NCBI RefSeq assembly: GCF_003790525.1
Contig: NZ_CP033635.1
Source of the DNA: Escherichia coli
Lineage (GTDB): Bacteria > Pseudomonadota > Gammaproteobacteria > Enterobacterales > Enterobacteriaceae
DNA: 64,000 bases
Reading direction: 5' to 3' (one strand)
The notes below the pieces were generated by a model. The model saw only the letters and a program-made list of their open reading frames with translations, was not told the origin of the DNA and did no database searches. Made by a program: the position numbers and the translations under genes. Shown here piece after piece: positions 108 to 31,264 of the stretch; positions within the stretch are counted from its first letter, which is position 1, and every line of letters begins with the position of its first letter.

Positions 108-830
108 TCACTTATTCTGCGTATGCAGCATATAGTTCACATCAACGCCGGGGCCGAGCTTAAAGGAATTAGTTATAGGGTTGTAATGCAGCCCGGTCAT
201 ATGCCGTTCTTTAAGACTGGTCTGATCCACCCAGCCCAGCAATTCTGCCGGTTTAATAAACTTCTTCACATCATGTGTACCTTTAGGCACCATGCGCAAA
301 ATATATTCAGCACCAACCACCGCCATCAGCCATGACTTGCCGTTGCGGTTGAGCGTCGAGAAAAAGACATCGCCGCCCGGTTTCACCAGTTGCGCACAGG
401 CTCTGACCACTGACTGAGGATCGGGGACGTGCTCCAGCATCTCCATGCAGGTCACCACATCATACTGCCCGGCATGTTTTGCCGCGTGCTCTTCCACGGT
501 TTCCTGCACGTAATCCACCTGAATGCCGCTTTCCAGTGCGTGCAGTTTTGCCACCTGCAATGGCTCAAAGCCCATATCCAGACCGGTCACCGTCGCACCT
601 TCGCGCGCCATACTCTCGGCCAGAATGCCGCCGCCACAACCGACATCGAGCACCTTTTTGCCAAATAAACCGCCAGCACGCTCGGCAATATAGCCCAGAC
701 GCAGCGGGTTAATACGGTGCAGCGGTTTGAACTCACCTTCCAGATCCCACCAGCGGGAGGCGACGGCTTCAAATTTAGCGATCTCTTCGTGGTCTACGTT
801 ATTGTTTTTAAGGAGATTTTCAGTGTTCAT
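108..830 (-). CDS. ubiG: Bifunctional 3-demethylubiquinone-9 3-O-methyltransferase UbiG (240 aa)
   Basis: Same length as E. coli UbiG and near-identical over residues ~11-240 as I recall it; SAM-binding motif [11 protein letters not shown]; divergent from gyrA as in K-12. Confidence 0.95.
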
Positions 831-907
831 TGTTACATAAGAGTCTATAAAGGTTGTCGGGCAGTATAGCAGGTGAAAAGTGCCAGTGTTATAAACTCAT
901 TCACATT

Positions 908-1606
908 TTACTGTGTAGATAACGAGAGAATTTTTCGTGCGCGCTCGGTAAATCCACTACTTACGTGATGAGTAATAAAATTACAAACACCTTCAACGTT
1001 ATTATTTTTTAGCATATCTAAAATAGTCGCATGGCCACGATTTGAATTGGTGATATATTCCGTAGTGAAATCCAGTCGATAACGGATAGCAAGTAAACGT
1101 GCGGATATCAATTGGTGTGCCTGAGAGATGTATTTATTATCAGCGTATTTAACAAACACATAATGAAAATCATGATCCAGTTTAAGATAAGCCTGAGTAT
1201 CGCGCTCGGCATTAATTTTTGCTGATTTTGATAGTATACTATTTAGTTCAATGATGACATTGTTTGCATTCTTTTCCATTGCTTCACTAATTGCACCCTG
1301 CTCCAGAATTACTCGCATTTTTATGAGGTCATTAATATCTTTATCTGTTACGGAAAAAACGAATGTTCCGCTGCGTGGAATGATATTGATCAGATTTTCA
1401 TTGTGACTAAGTAAAATAAAAGCTTCACGAATAGGTGTTTTACTTACCGCCAGAATATTCGAAAGTTCATTTTCACTTATCGGTTGCCCAAGACTGAGAT
1501 CGCCATGAATTATCATATCCCTGATTTTTTCTTTGATGACCTGTGTTACGGATTTTGGTATCTCAATTGATATGTGACTTAAGTCACGTTTCGCTTTATC
1601 TCTCAT
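908..1606 (-). CDS. GntR-family (FadR/FCD-type) transcriptional regulator, 232 aa
   Basis: N-terminal winged-HTH typical of GntR (ENELSNILAVSKTPIREAF) with a C-terminal helical FCD-like domain; strongly AT-rich codon usage; no equivalent between ubiG and gyrA in K-12 as I recall. Confidence 0.7.
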   Translation of the reverse strand: MRDKAKRDLSHISIEIPKSVTQVIKEKIRDMIIHGDLSLGQPISENELSNILAVSKTPIREAFILLSHNENLINIIPRSGTFVFSVTDKDINDLIKMRVILEQGAISEAMEKNANNVIIELNSILSKSAKINAERDTQAYLKLDHDFHYVFVKYADNKYISQAHQLISARLLAIRYRLDFTTEYITNSNRGHATILDMLKNNNVEGVCNFITHHVSSGFTERARKILSLSTQ

Positions 1607-1670
1607 TCCTTTGCCCCTTATTAAGCTGCTGGTCCATTATATGTAATCATTTTATCAATGAAGGTATCTA

Positions 1671-1753
1671 ATATATCAGATATGACAAAAATGATATATC
1701 TTATTGTTGTAGCTTAGTGTTTCAATCAATGATCAAGCTGATATATCAGATAT
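1671..1753. promoter_or_regulatory. Divergent promoter region with two exact 13-bp direct repeats ATATATCAGATAT (1671-1683 and 1741-1753); candidate operator for the adjacent GntR regulator
   Basis: Exact 13-mer repeated 70 bp apart, with extended ~20-bp similarity (ctaatatatcagatatgaca / ctgatatatcagatataaca), lying between the divergently oriented regulator and transporter genes. Confidence 0.4.
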
Positions 1754-1843
1754 AACACATCACCTTTTGAACTGGATTATTTTTTACGTAATATCCACTT
1801 CGGGCAGTACTCTTATTCATTGAACCACAAAAGGTGAAACAAA

Positions 1844-3172
1844 ATGAGCAGTCCTCAGAAAGATTTGTATGAAGCCATTTCTATTGTGAAAAGGAAGATT
1901 ATTCCGTTAGCATTTATTCTGTATTTTTTTAACTATATGGATCGTGTTAACATCGGATTTGCCGCTTTACGCATGAATGAATCCCTTGGTATTACACCAG
2001 AGGATTTTGCTAATATATCTTCAATATTTTTTGTGTCCTATTTGATTTTTCAAATTCCGAGCAGTATTGGATTGCAAAAGTTAGGTGCAAGAAAATGGAT
2101 TAGCGCCATTATTGTTGGTTGGGGAACAGTAACAACGTTAATTTTCTTTGCCAAAGACACCCAGCATATATTGCTCGCTCGGGTCTTTTTGGGAATATTT
2201 GAAGCGGGGTTTTTCCCTGGCATGGTTTACTACCTGGCATGTTGGTTCCCGGCGCGTGAACGTGGAAAAGTGAATAGCTTTTTTATGTTATCAATCGCAG
2301 TTGCATCTGTGCTGGCGGCACCAATGTCTGGTTGGATTATTGAACATATGAATACCGGTAACTATGAAGGATGGCGCTGGCTTTTTGCTATTGAAGGCAT
2401 TCCTACGGTGTTATTGGGGGCGCTGACCTTTTATTTACTGCCAGATCGTCCGGAAAAAGCCCGCTGGCTTACACCATCGCAAGTCACCGCATTGGTCGAT
2501 AAACTTAATTCTGATAACGAAAAAGCCGCAGCATTAAATAAAAATACAAATGCATCTTTTCTGTCAATCATTAAAAATCCAGTATTACTACAACTCTCAT
2601 TTGCTTATATGTTTATTCAGGCAGCGGCGTTGGCGGCAAATTACTGGTTACCGGGGTTGGTTAAAGGATTTTCATCGGATTTCACAGATACCGATGTCGG
2701 TTTGATTATGAGTATTCCGTTTATTTTCGCGATGTTCAGTATGCCATTATGGGGATGGCATTCCGATAAAAAGAATGAAAGGAAATGGCATGCCGCACTA
2801 CCGATGTTGGTTGCAGGTTGCGGTTTTTTAATGATCGCACTTGTACCTTCGATGACGCTGCGCATGATGGGATTAACATTATACGGTGTAGGCATTCTCA
2901 GTTATTACGGTCCGTACTGGGCTTTACCCTCAGCTTTACTTTCACCATCAGGCCTGGCAATCAGTATTGCGTTTATTAACTCTTGTTCAAGTTTGGGTGG
3001 TTTTCTGATCAATAAATCACTTGGCTATGTTTCTACACATTATGGAGCCACGGGGATATTTATTGTTGAGGCGATTCTTTGCTTTATCGCCGTAGCTATT
3101 TTGTTATCAATGAAAATTGATAATAAAAAAGATAACGCCCAGAAAGACAATGTTATTTCACATGCTAAATAA
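1844..3172 (+). CDS. MFS transporter, anion:cation symporter (ACS) family, sugar-acid permease-like (DgoT/ExuT/GudP-like), 442 aa
   Basis: About 12 predicted hydrophobic segments; N-terminal ACS-type motif NYMDRVNIGFA; AT-rich codon usage. Confidence 0.75.
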   Translation: MSSPQKDLYEAISIVKRKIIPLAFILYFFNYMDRVNIGFAALRMNESLGITPEDFANISSIFFVSYLIFQIPSSIGLQKLGARKWISAIIVGWGTVTTLIFFAKDTQHILLARVFLGIFEAGFFPGMVYYLACWFPARERGKVNSFFMLSIAVASVLAAPMSGWIIEHMNTGNYEGWRWLFAIEGIPTVLLGALTFYLLPDRPEKARWLTPSQVTALVDKLNSDNEKAAALNKNTNASFLSIIKNPVLLQLSFAYMFIQAAALAANYWLPGLVKGFSSDFTDTDVGLIMSIPFIFAMFSMPLWGWHSDKKNERKWHAALPMLVAGCGFLMIALVPSMTLRMMGLTLYGVGILSYYGPYWALPSALLSPSGLAISIAFINSCSSLGGFLINKSLGYVSTHYGATGIFIVEAILCFIAVAILLSMKIDNKKDNAQKDNVISHAK

Positions 3173-3184
3173 ATGAGGTTATTT

Positions 3185-4387
3185 ATGAAGATTACATCTG
3201 TAGAAATTTTTGACTGCGAACTCAAAAAAAGAGATCAAACTATGGCCTCTTATAATCCAGTACTTATTCGGGTTAATACCGATGCTGGAATAAGTGGTGT
3301 TGGCGAAGTAGGATTAGCCTATGGTGCAGGTGCAAAATCTGGTGTTGGTATTATCAGAGATTTAGCCCCTCTCATCATTGGTGAAGATCCGTTGAACATT
3401 GAGAAGATTTGGGAATTCCTCTTCAGGAAAACATTTTGGGGAATGGGCGGTGGTAATGTTTTTTACGCAGGTATGAGCGCTATTGATATTGCCTTATGGG
3501 ATATTAAAGGTAAATATTTAAACGTGCCGGTTTATCAACTACTGGGGGGAAAGACTAACGATAAATTGAGAACTTACGCCAGTCAGTTACAATTTGGTTG
3601 GGGCGAAAAAAGGCAAATATTAGTAACGCCTGAAGAGTATGCAGAGGCAGCGCGTGCCGCTATTGCAGAAGGTTATAATGCGATAAAAGTTGATCCGCTT
3701 GAAATCGATCTGCATGGCGGCGATTGTGTCTTTCAGAACAAAAATAGAAATTACTCTGGCTTATTACTGGCCGAACAATTAAAAATGGGCGAGGCAAGAA
3801 TTGCCGCTATGCGTGAAGCAATGGGCGACGATGCTGATATTATTGTAGAGATTCATTCTCTTCTAGGAACAAATTCAGCGATCCAGTTTGCCAAAGCAAT
3901 AGAGAAATATCGTATTTTTCTCTATGAGGAGCCAATTCATCCATTAAATTCGGATAATATGCAGAAAGTTGCCCGTTCAACATCGATTCCGATAGCAACA
4001 GGTGAGCGTTCTTATACTCGCTGGGGATATCGTGATTTACTGGAAAAACAATCAATTGCGGTAGCTCAACCTGATTTGTGTCTTTGTGGTGGCATTACAG
4101 AGGGAAAGAAAATTTGTGATTATGCCAATATATATGACACAACCGTTCAGGTACATGTTTGTGGCGGGCCTGTTTCAACAGTAGCGGCGCTGCATATGGA
4201 AACTGCAATACCTAACTTTATTATTCATGAACATCATACCAATGCGATGAAAGCATGTATTCGGGAACTTTGTACTTACGATTATCAACCCGAGAATGGC
4301 TATTATGTCGCGCCAGAGTTGCCTGGGCTTGGTCAGGAATTAAACGATGAAATCGTACAACAATATCTTGCCTATGTGATCAAATAA
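3185..4387 (+). CDS. Enolase-superfamily (mandelate racemase/muconate lactonizing enzyme-like) acid-sugar dehydratase, ~400 aa
   Basis: N-terminal capping-domain and barrel motifs typical of the MR/MLE superfamily (AIDIALWDIKGK, PVYQLLGG, later EEP and HxxE-type regions); the ATG at 3185 follows a GAGG Shine-Dalgarno; an alternative ATG at 3173 abuts the transporter stop. Confidence 0.7.
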   Translation: MKITSVEIFDCELKKRDQTMASYNPVLIRVNTDAGISGVGEVGLAYGAGAKSGVGIIRDLAPLIIGEDPLNIEKIWEFLFRKTFWGMGGGNVFYAGMSAIDIALWDIKGKYLNVPVYQLLGGKTNDKLRTYASQLQFGWGEKRQILVTPEEYAEAARAAIAEGYNAIKVDPLEIDLHGGDCVFQNKNRNYSGLLLAEQLKMGEARIAAMREAMGDDADIIVEIHSLLGTNSAIQFAKAIEKYRIFLYEEPIHPLNSDNMQKVARSTSIPIATGERSYTRWGYRDLLEKQSIAVAQPDLCLCGGITEGKKICDYANIYDTTVQVHVCGGPVSTVAALHMETAIPNFIIHEHHTNAMKACIRELCTYDYQPENGYYVAPELPGLGQELNDEIVQQYLAYVIK

Positions 4388-4414
4388 CGGCGATTTATAT
4401 ACTCTAAATAATTC

Positions 4415-4675
4415 GAGTTGCAGGAAGGCGACAAGCGAGTGACAAATTCGTCAGGAACGAATTTGCCCAGCCGCAGGCTGGCCTTCGGTGAGAGACATGG
4501 ATGTCTCTCATTAATCCCCAGGAGCTTACATAAGTAAGTGACTGGGGTGAGCGACAAATCCGCATGGAGCGGATTTGAACGCTGCTTGCAGCGGCCCCGT
4601 AAGGGGTGAGGTCCATGGATGGGCCGAATAACCCGCAGACGCAGCACATGCAACTTGAAGTATGACGAGTATAGC
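4415..4675. repeat. ERIC (enterobacterial repetitive intergenic consensus / IRU) element, long form with internal insertions
   Basis: Contains the ERIC core aatccccaggagcttacataagtaagtgactggggtgagcg and characteristic ends (gagttgcaggaaggcg ... acatgcaacttgaagtatgacgagtata); the ORFs called here (4372-4653, 4404-4649, 4619-4855) are taken as spurious. Confidence 0.8.
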
Positions 4676-4833
4676 CATTATTTCTGGTGTTTATTGAGGC
4701 ACAGGAAGCGTGTTGCGGTCTTTGTTCCTTTGTCGTTCACCGCCAGCGCGATGTGTGCTGGCGGTGGGGTAAAACGCAGTAGATCTACAGCGCCCGGAAG
4801 CCTGCATTACGTTTACCCGTCCGCAAGCGATTG

Positions 4834-4842
4834 TGTTATAAT
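4834..4842 (+). promoter_or_regulatory. Candidate gyrA promoter extended -10 element (TGtTATAAT)
   Basis: TGn + TATAAT hexamer about 45 bp upstream of the gyrA ATG. Confidence 0.5.
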
Positions 4843-4886
4843 CTCCGACCTTTGAATCCGGGATACAGTAGAGGGATAGCGGTTAG

Positions 4887-7514
4887 ATGAGCGACCTTGC
4901 GAGAGAAATTACACCGGTCAACATTGAGGAAGAGCTGAAGAGCTCCTATCTGGATTATGCGATGTCGGTCATTGTTGGCCGTGCGCTGCCGGATGTCCGA
5001 GATGGCCTGAAGCCGGTACACCGTCGCGTACTTTACGCCATGAACGTACTAGGCAATGACTGGAACAAAGCCTATAAAAAATCTGCCCGTGTCGTTGGTG
5101 ACGTAATCGGTAAATACCATCCCCATGGTGACTTGGCGGTTTATAACACGATCGTCCGTATGGCGCAGCCATTCTCGCTGCGTTACATGCTGGTAGACGG
5201 TCAGGGTAACTTCGGTTCCATCGACGGCGACTCTGCGGCGGCAATGCGTTATACGGAAATCCGTCTGGCGAAAATTGCCCATGAACTGATGGCCGATCTC
5301 GAAAAAGAGACGGTCGATTTCGTTGATAACTATGACGGCACGGAAAAAATTCCGGACGTCATGCCAACCAAAATTCCTAACCTGCTGGTGAACGGTTCTT
5401 CCGGTATCGCCGTAGGTATGGCAACCAACATCCCGCCGCACAACCTGACGGAAGTCATCAACGGTTGTCTGGCGTATATCGATGATGAAGACATCAGCAT
5501 TGAAGGGCTGATGGAACACATCCCGGGGCCGGACTTCCCGACGGCGGCAATCATTAACGGTCGTCGCGGTATTGAAGAAGCTTACCGTACCGGTCGTGGC
5601 AAGGTGTATATCCGCGCCCGTGCGGAAGTGGAAGTTGACGCCAAAACCGGGCGTGAAACCATTATCGTCCACGAAATTCCGTATCAGGTGAACAAAGCTC
5701 GCCTGATCGAAAAAATTGCGGAACTGGTAAAAGAAAAACGCGTGGAAGGTATCAGCGCGCTGCGTGACGAGTCTGACAAAGACGGTATGCGCATCGTGAT
5801 TGAAGTGAAACGCGATGCGGTCGGTGAAGTGGTGCTCAACAACCTCTATTCCCAGACCCAGTTGCAGGTTTCTTTCGGTATTAACATGGTGGCATTGCAC
5901 CATGGTCAGCCGAAGATCATGAACCTGAAAGACATCATCGCGGCGTTTGTTCGTCACCGCCGTGAAGTGGTGACCCGTCGTACTATTTTCGAACTGCGTA
6001 AAGCGCGCGATCGTGCTCATATCCTTGAAGCATTAGCCGTCGCGCTGGCAAACATTGACCCGATCATCGAACTGATCCGTCATGCGCCGACGCCTGCAGA
6101 AGCGAAAACGGCGCTGGTTGCTAATCCGTGGCAGCTGGGCAACGTTGCCGCGATGCTGGAACGAGCCGGCGACGATGCTGCGCGTCCGGAATGGCTGGAG
6201 CCAGAGTTCGGCGTGCGTGACGGTCTGTACTACCTGACCGAACAGCAAGCTCAGGCGATTCTGGATCTGCGTTTGCAGAAACTGACCGGCCTTGAGCACG
6301 AAAAACTGCTCGACGAATACAAAGAGCTGCTGGATCAGATCGCGGAACTGTTGCGTATTCTTGGTAGCGCCGATCGTCTGATGGAAGTGATCCGCGAAGA
6401 GCTGGAGCTGGTTCGTGAACAGTTCGGTGACAAACGTCGTACTGAAATCACCGCCAACAGCGCAGACATCAACCTGGAAGATCTGATCACCCAGGAAGAT
6501 GTGGTCGTGACGCTCTCTCACCAGGGCTACGTTAAATATCAGCCGCTTTCTGAATACGAAGCGCAGCGTCGTGGCGGGAAAGGTAAATCTGCCGCACGTA
6601 TTAAAGAAGAAGACTTTATCGACCGACTGCTGGTGGCGAATACCCACGACCATATTCTGTGCTTCTCCAGCCGTGGTCGCGTCTATTCGATGAAGGTTTA
6701 CCAGTTGCCAGAAGCTACTCGTGGCGCGCGCGGTCGTCCGATCGTCAACCTGCTGCCGCTGGAGCAGGACGAACGTATCACCGCGATCCTGCCGGTGACC
6801 GAGTTTGAAGAAGGCGTGAAAGTCTTCATGGCCACCGCTAACGGGACCGTGAAGAAAACCGTCCTCACCGAATTCAACCGTCTGCGTACCGCCGGTAAAG
6901 TGGCGATCAAACTGGTTGATGGCGATGAGCTGATCGGCGTTGACCTGACCAGCGGCGAAGATGAAGTAATGCTGTTCTCCGCCGAAGGTAAAGTGGTGCG
7001 CTTTAAAGAGTCTTCTGTCCGTGCGATGGGCTGCAACACCACCGGTGTTCGCGGTATTCGTTTAGGCGAAGGCGATAAAGTCGTCTCTCTGATCGTACCT
7101 CGTGGTGATGGCGCAATCCTCACCGCAACGCAGAACGGTTATGGTAAACGTACCGCAGTGGCGGAATACCCAACCAAGTCGCGTGCGACGAAAGGGGTTA
7201 TCTCCATCAAGGTTACCGAACGTAACGGTTTAGTGGTTGGCGCGGTGCAGGTAGATGACTGCGACCAGATCATGATGATCACCGATGCCGGTACGCTGGT
7301 ACGTACTCGCGTTTCAGAAATCAGCATCGTGGGCCGTAACACCCAGGGCGTGATCCTCATCCGTACTGCGGAAGATGAAAACGTAGTGGGTCTGCAACGT
7401 GTTGCTGAACCGGTTGACGAGGAAGATCTGGATACCATCGACGGCAGTGCCGCGGAAGGGGACGATGAAATCGCTCCGGAAGTGGACGTTGACGACGAGC
7501 CAGAAGAAGAATAA
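4887..7514 (+). CDS. gyrA: DNA gyrase subunit A (875 aa) carrying QRDR substitutions S83L (TTG, 5133-5135) and D87N (AAC, 5145-5147)
   Basis: Full-length match to E. coli GyrA; QRDR reads [15 protein letters not shown] where wild type is HPHGDSAVYDTIVRM; catalytic Tyr122 context AMRYTE is intact. Confidence 0.97.
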
Positions 7515-7662: not shown

Positions 7663-14509
<6,847 letters not shown>

Positions 14510-24430: not shown

Positions 24431-27280
24431 TTGAAATACCTTGCTTCTTTTCGTACAACCCTGAAAGCCTCGCGCTACATGTTCAGAGCATTGGCGTTAG
24501 TGCTCTGGCTGTTGATTGCTTTTTCATCCGTTTTTTACATCGTTAATGCGTTACATCAGCGAGAATCGGAAATTCGTCAGGAATTTAATCTGAGTTCCGA
24601 TCAGGCTCAGCGCTTTATTCAACGCACCTCTGATGTGATGAAAGAGCTGAAGTACATCGCCGAAAATCGCTTATCGGCAGAAAACGGTGTGCTTTCCCCG
24701 CGTGGACGAGAAACGCAGACGGATGTGCCTGCGTTTGAACCGCTGTTTGCTGACTCTGATTGTTCCGCAATGAGTAACACCTGGCGAGGTTCTCTGGAGT
24801 CATTGGCGTGGTTTATGCGCTACTGGCGCGATAATTTTTCTGCGGCTTACGATCTCAACCGGGTATTTTTAATCGGCAGCGATAACCTCTGCATGGCCAA
24901 TTTCGGTCTGCGTGATATGCCAGTGGAACGCGATACCGCGCTAAAAGCTTTGCATGAACGCATTAATAAATATCGAAATGCACCACAAGATGATAGTGGC
25001 AGTAACCTCTACTGGATCAGCGAAGGTCCGCGCCCTGGCGTCGGGTATTTTTACGCGTTGACGCCAGTTTATCTGGCGAACCGGTTGCAGGCGCTTTTGG
25101 GTGTCGAGCAGACCATCCGGATGGAGAACTTTTTCTTGCCTGGTACGTTGCCGATGGGGGTTACCATTCTTGATGAAAATGGTCATACCCTGATTTCGCT
25201 TACCGGACCAGAAAGCAAAATTAAGGGCGATCCTCGCTGGATGCAGGAACGCTCCTGGTTTGGCTATACGGAAGGGTTCCGGGAGCTGGTGCTGAAGAAA
25301 AATCTGCCACCCTCATCGCTAAGCATCGTGTATTCGGTGCCGGTTGATAAGGTGCTGGAACGCATTCGCATGTTGATCCTTAACGCAATTTTGCTGAATG
25401 TGCTTGCCGGAGCTGCATTGTTTACTCTCGCGCGGATGTACGAGCGACGTATTTTCATTCCGGCGGAAAGCGACGCCCTGCGACTGGAAGAACATGAGCA
25501 GTTTAATCGCAAGATTGTCGCCTCCGCGCCAGTGGGTATCTGCATTTTGCGTACCGCTGATGGCGTCAATATTTTAAGTAACGAACTGGCGCATACCTAT
25601 CTCAATATGCTTACGCATGAGGATCGCCAACGGCTGACACAAATTATCTGTGGGCAGCAGGTCAATTTTGTTGATGTCCTGACCAGCAACAATACCAATC
25701 TGCAAATCAGCTTCGTCCATTCGCGCTATCGTAATGAAAACGTGGCCATTTGTGTGCTGGTGGATGTTTCTTCGCGCGTGAAGATGGAAGAGTCGTTGCA
25801 GGAGATGGCACAAGCAGCGGAACAGGCGAGTCAGTCAAAATCGATGTTCCTTGCCACCGTCAGTCATGAGCTGCGAACGCCGCTGTATGGCATTATCGGT
25901 AACCTGGATCTATTGCAAACCAAAGAGTTGCCGAAAGGCGTCGATCGTCTGGTGACGGCAATGAACAACTCTTCCAGCCTGTTGTTGAAAATTATCAGCG
26001 ATATTCTCGATTTCTCGAAGATTGAATCAGAACAGTTGAAGATCGAACCGCGTGAGTTTTCACCGCGTGAAGTGATGAACCACATCACCGCCAACTATTT
26101 ACCGCTGGTGGTACGCAAGCAGTTAGGCTTGTACTGCTTTATTGAACCGGATGTGCCAGTGGCCTTAAATGGCGACCCGATGCGTTTACAGCAGGTCATC
26201 TCCAACCTGTTGAGTAACGCCATAAAATTCACCGATACCGGCTGTATAGTTTTGCAAGTTCGCGCTGATGGCGATTATCTCTCTATCCGTGTTCGCGATA
26301 CCGGCGTGGGGATTCCGGCGAAAGAAGTCGTGCGCTTGTTTGATCCCTTCTTCCAGGTCGGAACGGGCGTACAGCGAAACTTCCAGGGGACCGGTCTGGG
26401 TCTGGCGATTTGTGAAAAACTGATCAGCATGATGGACGGCGACATCTCGGTAGATTCAGAACCGGGAATGGGCAGCCAGTTTACCGTGCGTATTCCGTTG
26501 TACGGCGCTCAGTACCCGCAGAAAAAAGGCGTGGAAGGGTTGAGTGGTAAACGCTGCTGGCTGGCGGTCCGCAATGCGTCGCTCTGTCAGTTCCTGGAAA
26601 CCAGTTTGCAGCGCAGCGGCATCGTCGTTACAACATACGAAGGGCAGGAACCGACTCCCGAAGATGTGTTAATTACTGACGAGGTAGTGAGTAAAAAATG
26701 GCAGGGTAGAGCGGTAGTGACCTTCTGTCGTCGCCATATTGGTATTCCGCTGGAGAAAGCGCCAGGGGAGTGGGTACACAGTGTGGCGGCCCCGCATGAG
26801 CTACCGGCATTGTTGGCGCGTATTTATTTGATCGAGATGGAGAGCGATGATCCTGCTAACGCTCTGCCGTCGACGGACAAAGCGGTCAGCGATAACGACG
26901 ATATGATGATTCTGGTCGTGGATGATCATCCGATTAACCGGCGTCTTCTGGCAGATCAGTTGGGATCGTTGGGCTATCAATGTAAAACCGCGAATGATGG
27001 CGTCGATGCGCTTAATGTACTTAGCAAGAATCATATTGATATCGTGCTTAGCGACGTCAACATGCCAAATATGGATGGTTACCGCTTGACGCAACGCATT
27101 CGTCAGTTGGGACTGACGTTGCCGGTAATCGGAGTAACTGCTAATGCGTTGGCTGAAGAGAAGCAGCGGTGTCTGGAGTCCGGTATGGACAGCTGCCTGT
27201 CGAAGCCGGTAACGCTGGATGTGATAAAACAGACGCTGACGGTATATGCCGAGAGGGTCAGGAAATCGCGGGAATCGTAG
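24431..27280 (+). CDS. rcsC: Hybrid sensor kinase RcsC, 949 aa
   Basis: HisKA (HELRTPL), HATPase and C-terminal receiver domains; K-12 length. Confidence 0.96.
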   Translation: MKYLASFRTTLKASRYMFRALALVLWLLIAFSSVFYIVNALHQRESEIRQEFNLSSDQAQRFIQRTSDVMKELKYIAENRLSAENGVLSPRGRETQTDVPAFEPLFADSDCSAMSNTWRGSLESLAWFMRYWRDNFSAAYDLNRVFLIGSDNLCMANFGLRDMPVERDTALKALHERINKYRNAPQDDSGSNLYWISEGPRPGVGYFYALTPVYLANRLQALLGVEQTIRMENFFLPGTLPMGVTILDENGHTLISLTGPESKIKGDPRWMQERSWFGYTEGFRELVLKKNLPPSSLSIVYSVPVDKVLERIRMLILNAILLNVLAGAALFTLARMYERRIFIPAESDALRLEEHEQFNRKIVASAPVGICILRTADGVNILSNELAHTYLNMLTHEDRQRLTQIICGQQVNFVDVLTSNNTNLQISFVHSRYRNENVAICVLVDVSSRVKMEESLQEMAQAAEQASQSKSMFLATVSHELRTPLYGIIGNLDLLQTKELPKGVDRLVTAMNNSSSLLLKIISDILDFSKIESEQLKIEPREFSPREVMNHITANYLPLVVRKQLGLYCFIEPDVPVALNGDPMRLQQVISNLLSNAIKFTDTGCIVLQVRADGDYLSIRVRDTGVGIPAKEVVRLFDPFFQVGTGVQRNFQGTGLGLAICEKLISMMDGDISVDSEPGMGSQFTVRIPLYGAQYPQKKGVEGLSGKRCWLAVRNASLCQFLETSLQRSGIVVTTYEGQEPTPEDVLITDEVVSKKWQGRAVVTFCRRHIGIPLEKAPGEWVHSVAAPHELPALLARIYLIEMESDDPANALPSTDKAVSDNDDMMILVVDDHPINRRLLADQLGSLGYQCKTANDGVDALNVLSKNHIDIVLSDVNMPNMDGYRLTQRIRQLGLTLPVIGVTANALAEEKQRCLESGMDSCLSKPVTLDVIKQTLTVYAERVRKSRES

Positions 27281-27282
27281 GA

Positions 27283-27363
27283 CGGATAAGGCGTTTACGC
27301 CGCATCTGGCATTCAGTGCAAATGCCAGATAAGACACTAACGCGTCTTATCTGGCCTACAGGT
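27283..27363. repeat. REP/BIME palindromic repeat cluster between rcsC and rcsB
   Basis: gacggataaggcgtttacgccgcatctggca ... gtcttatctggcctacagg, REP consensus family. Confidence 0.75.
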
Positions 27364-31015: not shown

Positions 31016-31108
31016 TAAAAAAAACCGGATGCGAGGCATCCGGTTGAAATAGGGGTAAACAGACATTCAGAAATGAATGACGGTAATAAATAAAGTTAAT
31101 GATGATAG
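31016..31108 (-). ncRNA. micF: MicF antisense sRNA (93 nt)
   Basis: Reverse complement reads gctatcatcattaactttatttattaccgtcattcatttctgaatgtctgtttacccctatttcaaccggatgcctcgcatccggtttttttt; divergent from ompC with an intrinsic terminator. Confidence 0.93.
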
Positions 31109-31264
31109 CGGGAGATATTCTAGTTGCGAGTGAAGGTTTTGTTTTGACATTCAGTGCTGTCAAATACTTAAGAATAAGTTATTGATTTTAACCTTGAATT
31201 ATTATTGCTTGATGTTAGGTGCTTATTTCGCCATTCCGCAATAATCTTAAAAAGTTCCCTTGCA

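Follow-up and report, generated by a model that had tools for sequence, protein, structure and literature searches.

gyrA, encoding the A subunit of DNA gyrase, is located downstream of a 4-kb gene module that separates it from ubiG in the window, the whole 64,000-nt stretch of Escherichia coli DNA analysed here (Table 1). The gene order, ubiG-(4-kb module)-gyrA-yfaA, corresponds to yfaA-gyrA-ubiG in K-12, and gyrA is annotated at the identical position in strain SMS-3-5. The reading frame is uninterrupted and retains Tyr122, and the N-terminal 525 residues of its product match solved E. coli GyrA chains in the PDB (3nuh, 6rks and others) at ~1150 bits. Homology comparison revealed that the 55 nt before the start codon, with TGTGTTATAAT among them, are conserved with K-12, and this stretch putatively holds the gyrA promoter. 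An alteration of gyrA regulation by the upstream module was considered and set aside.

Table 1. Features of the window and its differences from SMS-3-5 (positions counted from the first base of the window)
Feature	Position	Strand	Basis or remark
ubiG, conserved left-hand neighbour of gyrA	108-830	-	
Lineage-restricted 4-kb sugar-acid gene module between ubiG and gyrA	808-4831	.	BLAST against the K-12 intergenic region
GntR-family regulator, frameshifted (pseudogene)	908-1650	-	
MFS transporter	1844-3172	+	NCBIfam best: 4-hydroxyphenylacetate permease and galactonate-transporter families
Enolase-superfamily sugar-acid dehydratase	3185-4387	+	NCBIfam best: galactonate dehydratase
ERIC/IRU-type intergenic repeat, between the dehydratase gene and gyrA	about 4390-4673		
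gyrA promoter-proximal region and leader (putative)	4832-4886	+	K-12 homology 98.3%, resuming at 4832
gyrA CDS, DNA gyrase subunit A, 875 aa	4887-7514	+	ORF and translation; 873/875 aa identical to K-12
QRDR, codons 67-106	5085-5204	+	Counted from the start codon at 4887
Codon 83, TTG (Leu); wild type TCG (Ser)	5133-5135	+	C>T at 5134
Codon 87, AAC (Asn); wild type GAC (Asp)	5145-5147	+	G>A at 5145
Codon 122, TAT, catalytic tyrosine, intact	5250-5252	+	Residue 122 is Y
Difference from SMS-3-5	10595		G>T, G201C in alpha-2-macroglobulin-family gene
Difference from SMS-3-5	19116		C>T, G146S in atoE
naRNA4	27280-27356	+	Rfam scan
MicF, next to ompC	31017-31110	-	Rfam scan
Difference from SMS-3-5	55152		C>T, synonymous, yejO
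tRNA (tRNA-Pro in the SMS-3-5 annotation)	55960-56033	-	Rfam scan
L25 ribosomal-protein leader	59749-59774	-	Rfam scan

The module, composed of a regulator pseudogene, a transporter gene and a dehydratase gene, occupies the interval in which K-12 homology is interrupted, ending at ~807 and resuming at 4832, with ~4 kb in place of ~114 nt of K-12 intergenic DNA. It is complete in 140 of the 5,426 complete E. coli genomes searched. In AR_0077 the transporter is also frameshifted, and in TH9F11 an IS5 element lies within the dehydratase gene. The NCBIfam matches of the module genes all fall below the curated cut-offs. Annotation and family matches identified no mobility genes in the module (no integrase, transposase or tRNA attachment site), and a repeat search covering 4380-4890 found none there. 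The frameshift in the GntR-family regulator is common to the annotations of SMS-3-5, IAI39, AR_0077, SCU-301 and E7-1N7; the transporter and dehydratase may be unregulated or decaying.

The intergenic repeat at the gyrA-proximal end of the module contains AAGTAAGTGACTGGGGTGAGCG at 4533-4554, read directly, which we take to be the exact ERIC2 primer sequence and the ERIC/IRU core. A REP/BIME identity was considered for the repeat and discarded, a REP-consensus pattern search and a repeat search having found nothing and the ERIC/IRU core having been read instead. Almost all E. coli genomes have several scattered matches to the repeat. Relatives lacking two internal segments, of 71 bp (4442-4512) and 78 bp (4555-4632), indicate that it varies by internal insertions.

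Direct reading of positions 5124-5150 gives CAT GGT GAC TTG GCG GTT TAT AAC ACG, translated as H80 G81 D82 L83 A84 V85 Y86 N87 T88. This stretch lies within the QRDR, delimited here as codons 67-106, which we take to be the conventional definition. Codon-by-codon alignment with gyrA of K-12 MG1655 revealed 57 differing codons carrying 57 base differences, 55 of them synonymous. The only two non-synonymous changes are S83L (TCG>TTG) and D87N (GAC>AAC), and the computed probability that two random amino-acid changes among 875 codons would fall exactly on codons 83 and 87 is ~2.6e-6. The initial annotation had reported this pair, placing TTG at 5133-5135 and AAC at 5145-5147 and naming Ser83 (TCG) and Asp87 (GAC) as wild type; the alignment confirms both codons, the bases read at these coordinates agree exactly, and K-12, four relatives and 2,653 complete genomes carry the wild-type residues. 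A sequencing error is rejected because the identical whole-gene allele is present in 28 independent complete assemblies. The window gyrA is the E. coli GyrA orthologue with S83L and D87N. It shares with the known E. coli double mutant the gene, the codons, the nucleotide changes and an otherwise unchanged enzyme, showing no mechanistic difference from that allele; only its synonymous background is lineage-specific.

The distribution of QRDR variants was determined by megablast of 33-nt queries spanning codons 80-90 against the 5,426 complete genomes, a query of this length matching only if essentially exact because of the 28-base megablast word. The L83/N87 QRDR with GTT at codon 85, the version present in the window, was found in 1,370 genomes and that with the synonymous GTC in 331, amounting to at least 1,701 of 5,426 (31%). 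The wild-type S83/D87 QRDR was found in 2,014 genomes with GTT and 639 with GTC, a total of 2,653 (49%). With Ser83/Asp87 in 2,653 genomes against 1,701 for L83/N87, Ser/Asp is therefore the species norm. The gyrA double mutant is very common in sequenced E. coli collections. At the level of the whole gene, the exact allele is present in 28 of the 5,426 genomes, SMS-3-5 included, and only 34 genomes reach at least 99% identity across gyrA. One gyrA match with the L83/N87 QRDR, outside the window, sits on an E. coli record bearing a plasmid label, a replicon that is probably mislabelled or wrongly assembled.

Comparison of the whole window with SMS-3-5 (NC_010498, positions 2,363,904-2,427,903) revealed identity at 63,997 of 64,000 bases, with gyrA, the ubiG-gyrA module and the gene order shared between the two. 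All three differing sites (10595, 19116 and 55152) read T in the window. The top fourteen genomes by score in the first 25 kb, a set that includes SMS-3-5, all tie at a bit score of 46,156, and this equality suggests that the differences at 10595 and 19116 are private to the source strain of the window. SMS-3-5, an environmental multidrug-resistant strain among the genomes carrying the exact gyrA allele, serves as a reference for ST354 (PMC9174282), a phylogroup F type with gyrA S83L/D87N, parC S80I/E84G and parE I355T (PMC11183298). The genes annotated in the window include no MLST or Clermont typing locus; judged by its near-identity to SMS-3-5, rather than by typing, the source is an ST354-type, phylogroup F E. 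coli.

The topoisomerase IV genes parC and parE lie outside the window, ~1 Mb off, and were read in SMS-3-5, three SNPs away from the window. Relative to K-12, SMS-3-5 carries S80I, E84G and D475E in parC and V136I, V153I and I355T in parE, of which parC S80I/E84G and parE I355T match the ST354 profile (PMC11183298). As read from its genes, SMS-3-5, a near-identical genome that may not be the same isolate, shows the full high-level resistance genotype. The initial annotation had taken the gyrA pair as the mark of a fluoroquinolone-resistant lineage and had proposed inspecting parC codons 80 and 84 elsewhere in the genome; the presence of S80I and E84G in SMS-3-5, together with parE I355T and the near-identity of the window to this ST354 strain, supports that assignment. 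The accompanying claim of a clinical or selected origin holds as regards a resistant lineage, but "clinical" is not required, since the sources of the genomes with this exact allele extend beyond humans to chickens, dogs, fish, a pangolin and river water.

Quinolones enter gyrase-cleaved DNA and contact GyrA mainly via a Mg2+ ion chelated by the C3/C4 keto acid of the drug.(PMC9917921) Two of the four waters around this ion hydrogen-bond Ser83 and Asp87, both residues serving as anchors of a water-metal ion bridge in E. coli gyrase that mainly positions the drug (PMC9917921). Situated on the GyrA helix facing the cleaved DNA, Ser83 and Asp87 would anchor the waters of the quinolone Mg2+, and Leu83 and Asn87, by their residue identities and the published bridge (PMC9917921), would be unable to do so. 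Without this anchor, the quinolone would not be properly bound or positioned in the gyrase-DNA cleavage complex and gyrase would no longer be poisoned, while catalysis is expected to be preserved, with Tyr122 intact and no further amino-acid changes. Acting with topoisomerase IV mutations (parC S80I/E84G and parE I355T in SMS-3-5), the gyrA pair would confer clinical high-level fluoroquinolone resistance.

In isogenic MG1655 constructs, the ciprofloxacin MIC is 0.016 ug/ml for the wild type, 0.38 ug/ml for S83L and 0.25 ug/ml for D87N, each single gyrA mutation raising it 16- to 24-fold (PMC2714960). Combining S83L and D87N leaves the MIC at 0.38 ug/ml, equal to that of S83L alone, and addition of parC S80I brings it to 32 ug/ml with no measurable fitness cost in the triple mutant (PMC2714960). 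The gyrA pair, at only 0.38 ug/ml against 32 ug/ml with parC S80I, is therefore necessary but not sufficient for high-level resistance. The initial annotation had called it the canonical high-level genotype: it is a resistance pair, but high-level resistance does not follow from the gyrA pair alone. Its marker value comes from a near-constant association with parC mutations. Taking the bridge mechanism and the MIC effects from the literature, we infer a resistant phenotype for the source strain.

Investigation of the region around the QRDR bears on how the resistant allele arose. Wild-type IAI39 and the window have the same base at all but three positions (4633, 5134 and 5145) of the 3.5-kb block 2124-5605, which takes in most of the ubiG-gyrA module together with gyrA codons 1-240. 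IAI39, AR_0077, SCU-301 and E7-1N7 share the gene order and the upstream module and have a wild-type QRDR. In AR_0013, whose 5' gyrA background is the same, S83L is present without D87N, and the first 719 nt of gyrA differ from the window only at 5145. IAI39 thus holds none, AR_0013 one and the window both of the resistance substitutions; 3' of codon 240, the gyrA genes of IAI39 and AR_0013 diverge from that of the window by 20-40 synonymous sites. Six gyrA sites carry a window base absent from four phylogroup-F relatives and K-12, 5134 and 5145 among them. Because the block 2124-5605 equals IAI39 except at three sites, two of which are the resistance bases, an in-place origin of the mutations is most likely. 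The gyrA native to the lineage would most likely have gained S83L and D87N stepwise while under quinolone selection. We hold with high confidence that the best overall explanation is an ST354-type chromosomal gyrA with two stepwise, in-place substitutions under quinolone selection, conferring resistance jointly with topoisomerase IV mutations.

Homologous recombination could instead have imported the resistant QRDR from another fluoroquinolone-resistant E. coli, possibly along with the ubiG-gyrA module, an origin that we consider improbable. There are reports of other E. coli clones gaining resistant gyrA alleles through recombination, and the first 25 kb of the window, with a SNP density against phylogroup-F relatives ranging from 0 to 35 per kb, reads as an ordinary E. 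coli recombination mosaic. Flanking markers are few at the 5' end of gyrA because 4,484 of 5,425 genomes share its first 719 nt at 99% identity or more, so a short patch carrying the QRDR alone might have entered; in the double mutants Z30, MS20675 and TK3887, the 5' gyrA segment is one synonymous base from the window, and hardly any sign of a short donor tract would thus remain. However, such a tract would have had to bring only the resistance bases and 4633, as 2124-5605 is otherwise that of wild-type IAI39, and the whole-gene allele is confined to ~30 genomes. Arrival together with the module is further opposed by four relatives (IAI39, AR_0077, SCU-301 and E7-1N7) in which the module, its regulator carrying the same frameshift, accompanies a wild-type gyrA, by the module's occurrence in 140 genomes against 28 with the allele, and by its lack of an integrase, a transposase and a tRNA attachment site. 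Its presence in these four wild-type relatives means that the module predates resistance. The module is real, lineage-restricted, older than resistance and not tied to it. The earlier proposal that resistance and the adjacent island could hitch-hike together lacks support in view of the missing mobility genes and the wild-type relatives, leaving only trivial physical linkage. A joint transfer of the resistant ST354 gyrA segment and its neighbouring module to other E. coli lineages, in a single homologous-recombination tract, is, in our estimate, highly improbable; if it did occur, horizontal spread of fluoroquinolone resistance would be physically marked by the module.

A different reading, in which Leu83/Asn87 is a neutral phylogroup polymorphism, or stems from misassembly or misreading, and is without effect on susceptibility, has next to no likelihood and was rejected. 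Nothing was found in its support, and it is refuted by the relatives, the genome counts and the isogenic MICs: the four nearest relatives and K-12 are all Ser/Asp, the wild-type 33-mer is present in 2,653 complete genomes, the two substitutions are the sole amino-acid differences among 57 differing codons, the same bases recur in 28 independent assemblies, and either mutation by itself raises the MIC 16- to 24-fold (PMC2714960).

The gyrA pair, its mechanism and its epidemiology are already known and textbook, representing a known genotype in a known resistant lineage. The pair rightly marks the source as belonging to a fluoroquinolone-resistant, ST354-like E. coli lineage of phylogroup F, in circulation among poultry, dogs, people and surface water. 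The finding is useful for annotation, for surveillance and for predicting treatment failure, and adds no new biology.

Residue 678 of GyrA (codon at 6918-6920) is Asp in both the window (GAT) and K-12 (GAC), and IAI39, SCU-301 and E7-1N7, all of phylogroup F, carry Glu678 (GAA); this C-terminal difference is a natural polymorphism and belongs to the mosaic 3' half of gyrA. The alpha-2-macroglobulin-family gene yfaS (9995-14509, + strand) is intact in the window; in K-12 it exists as a pseudogene, and in IAI39 it is interrupted by an internal stop. The Rfam matches (MicF, naRNA4, the tRNA and the L25 leader) are expected core non-coding RNAs, with nothing unusual among them.
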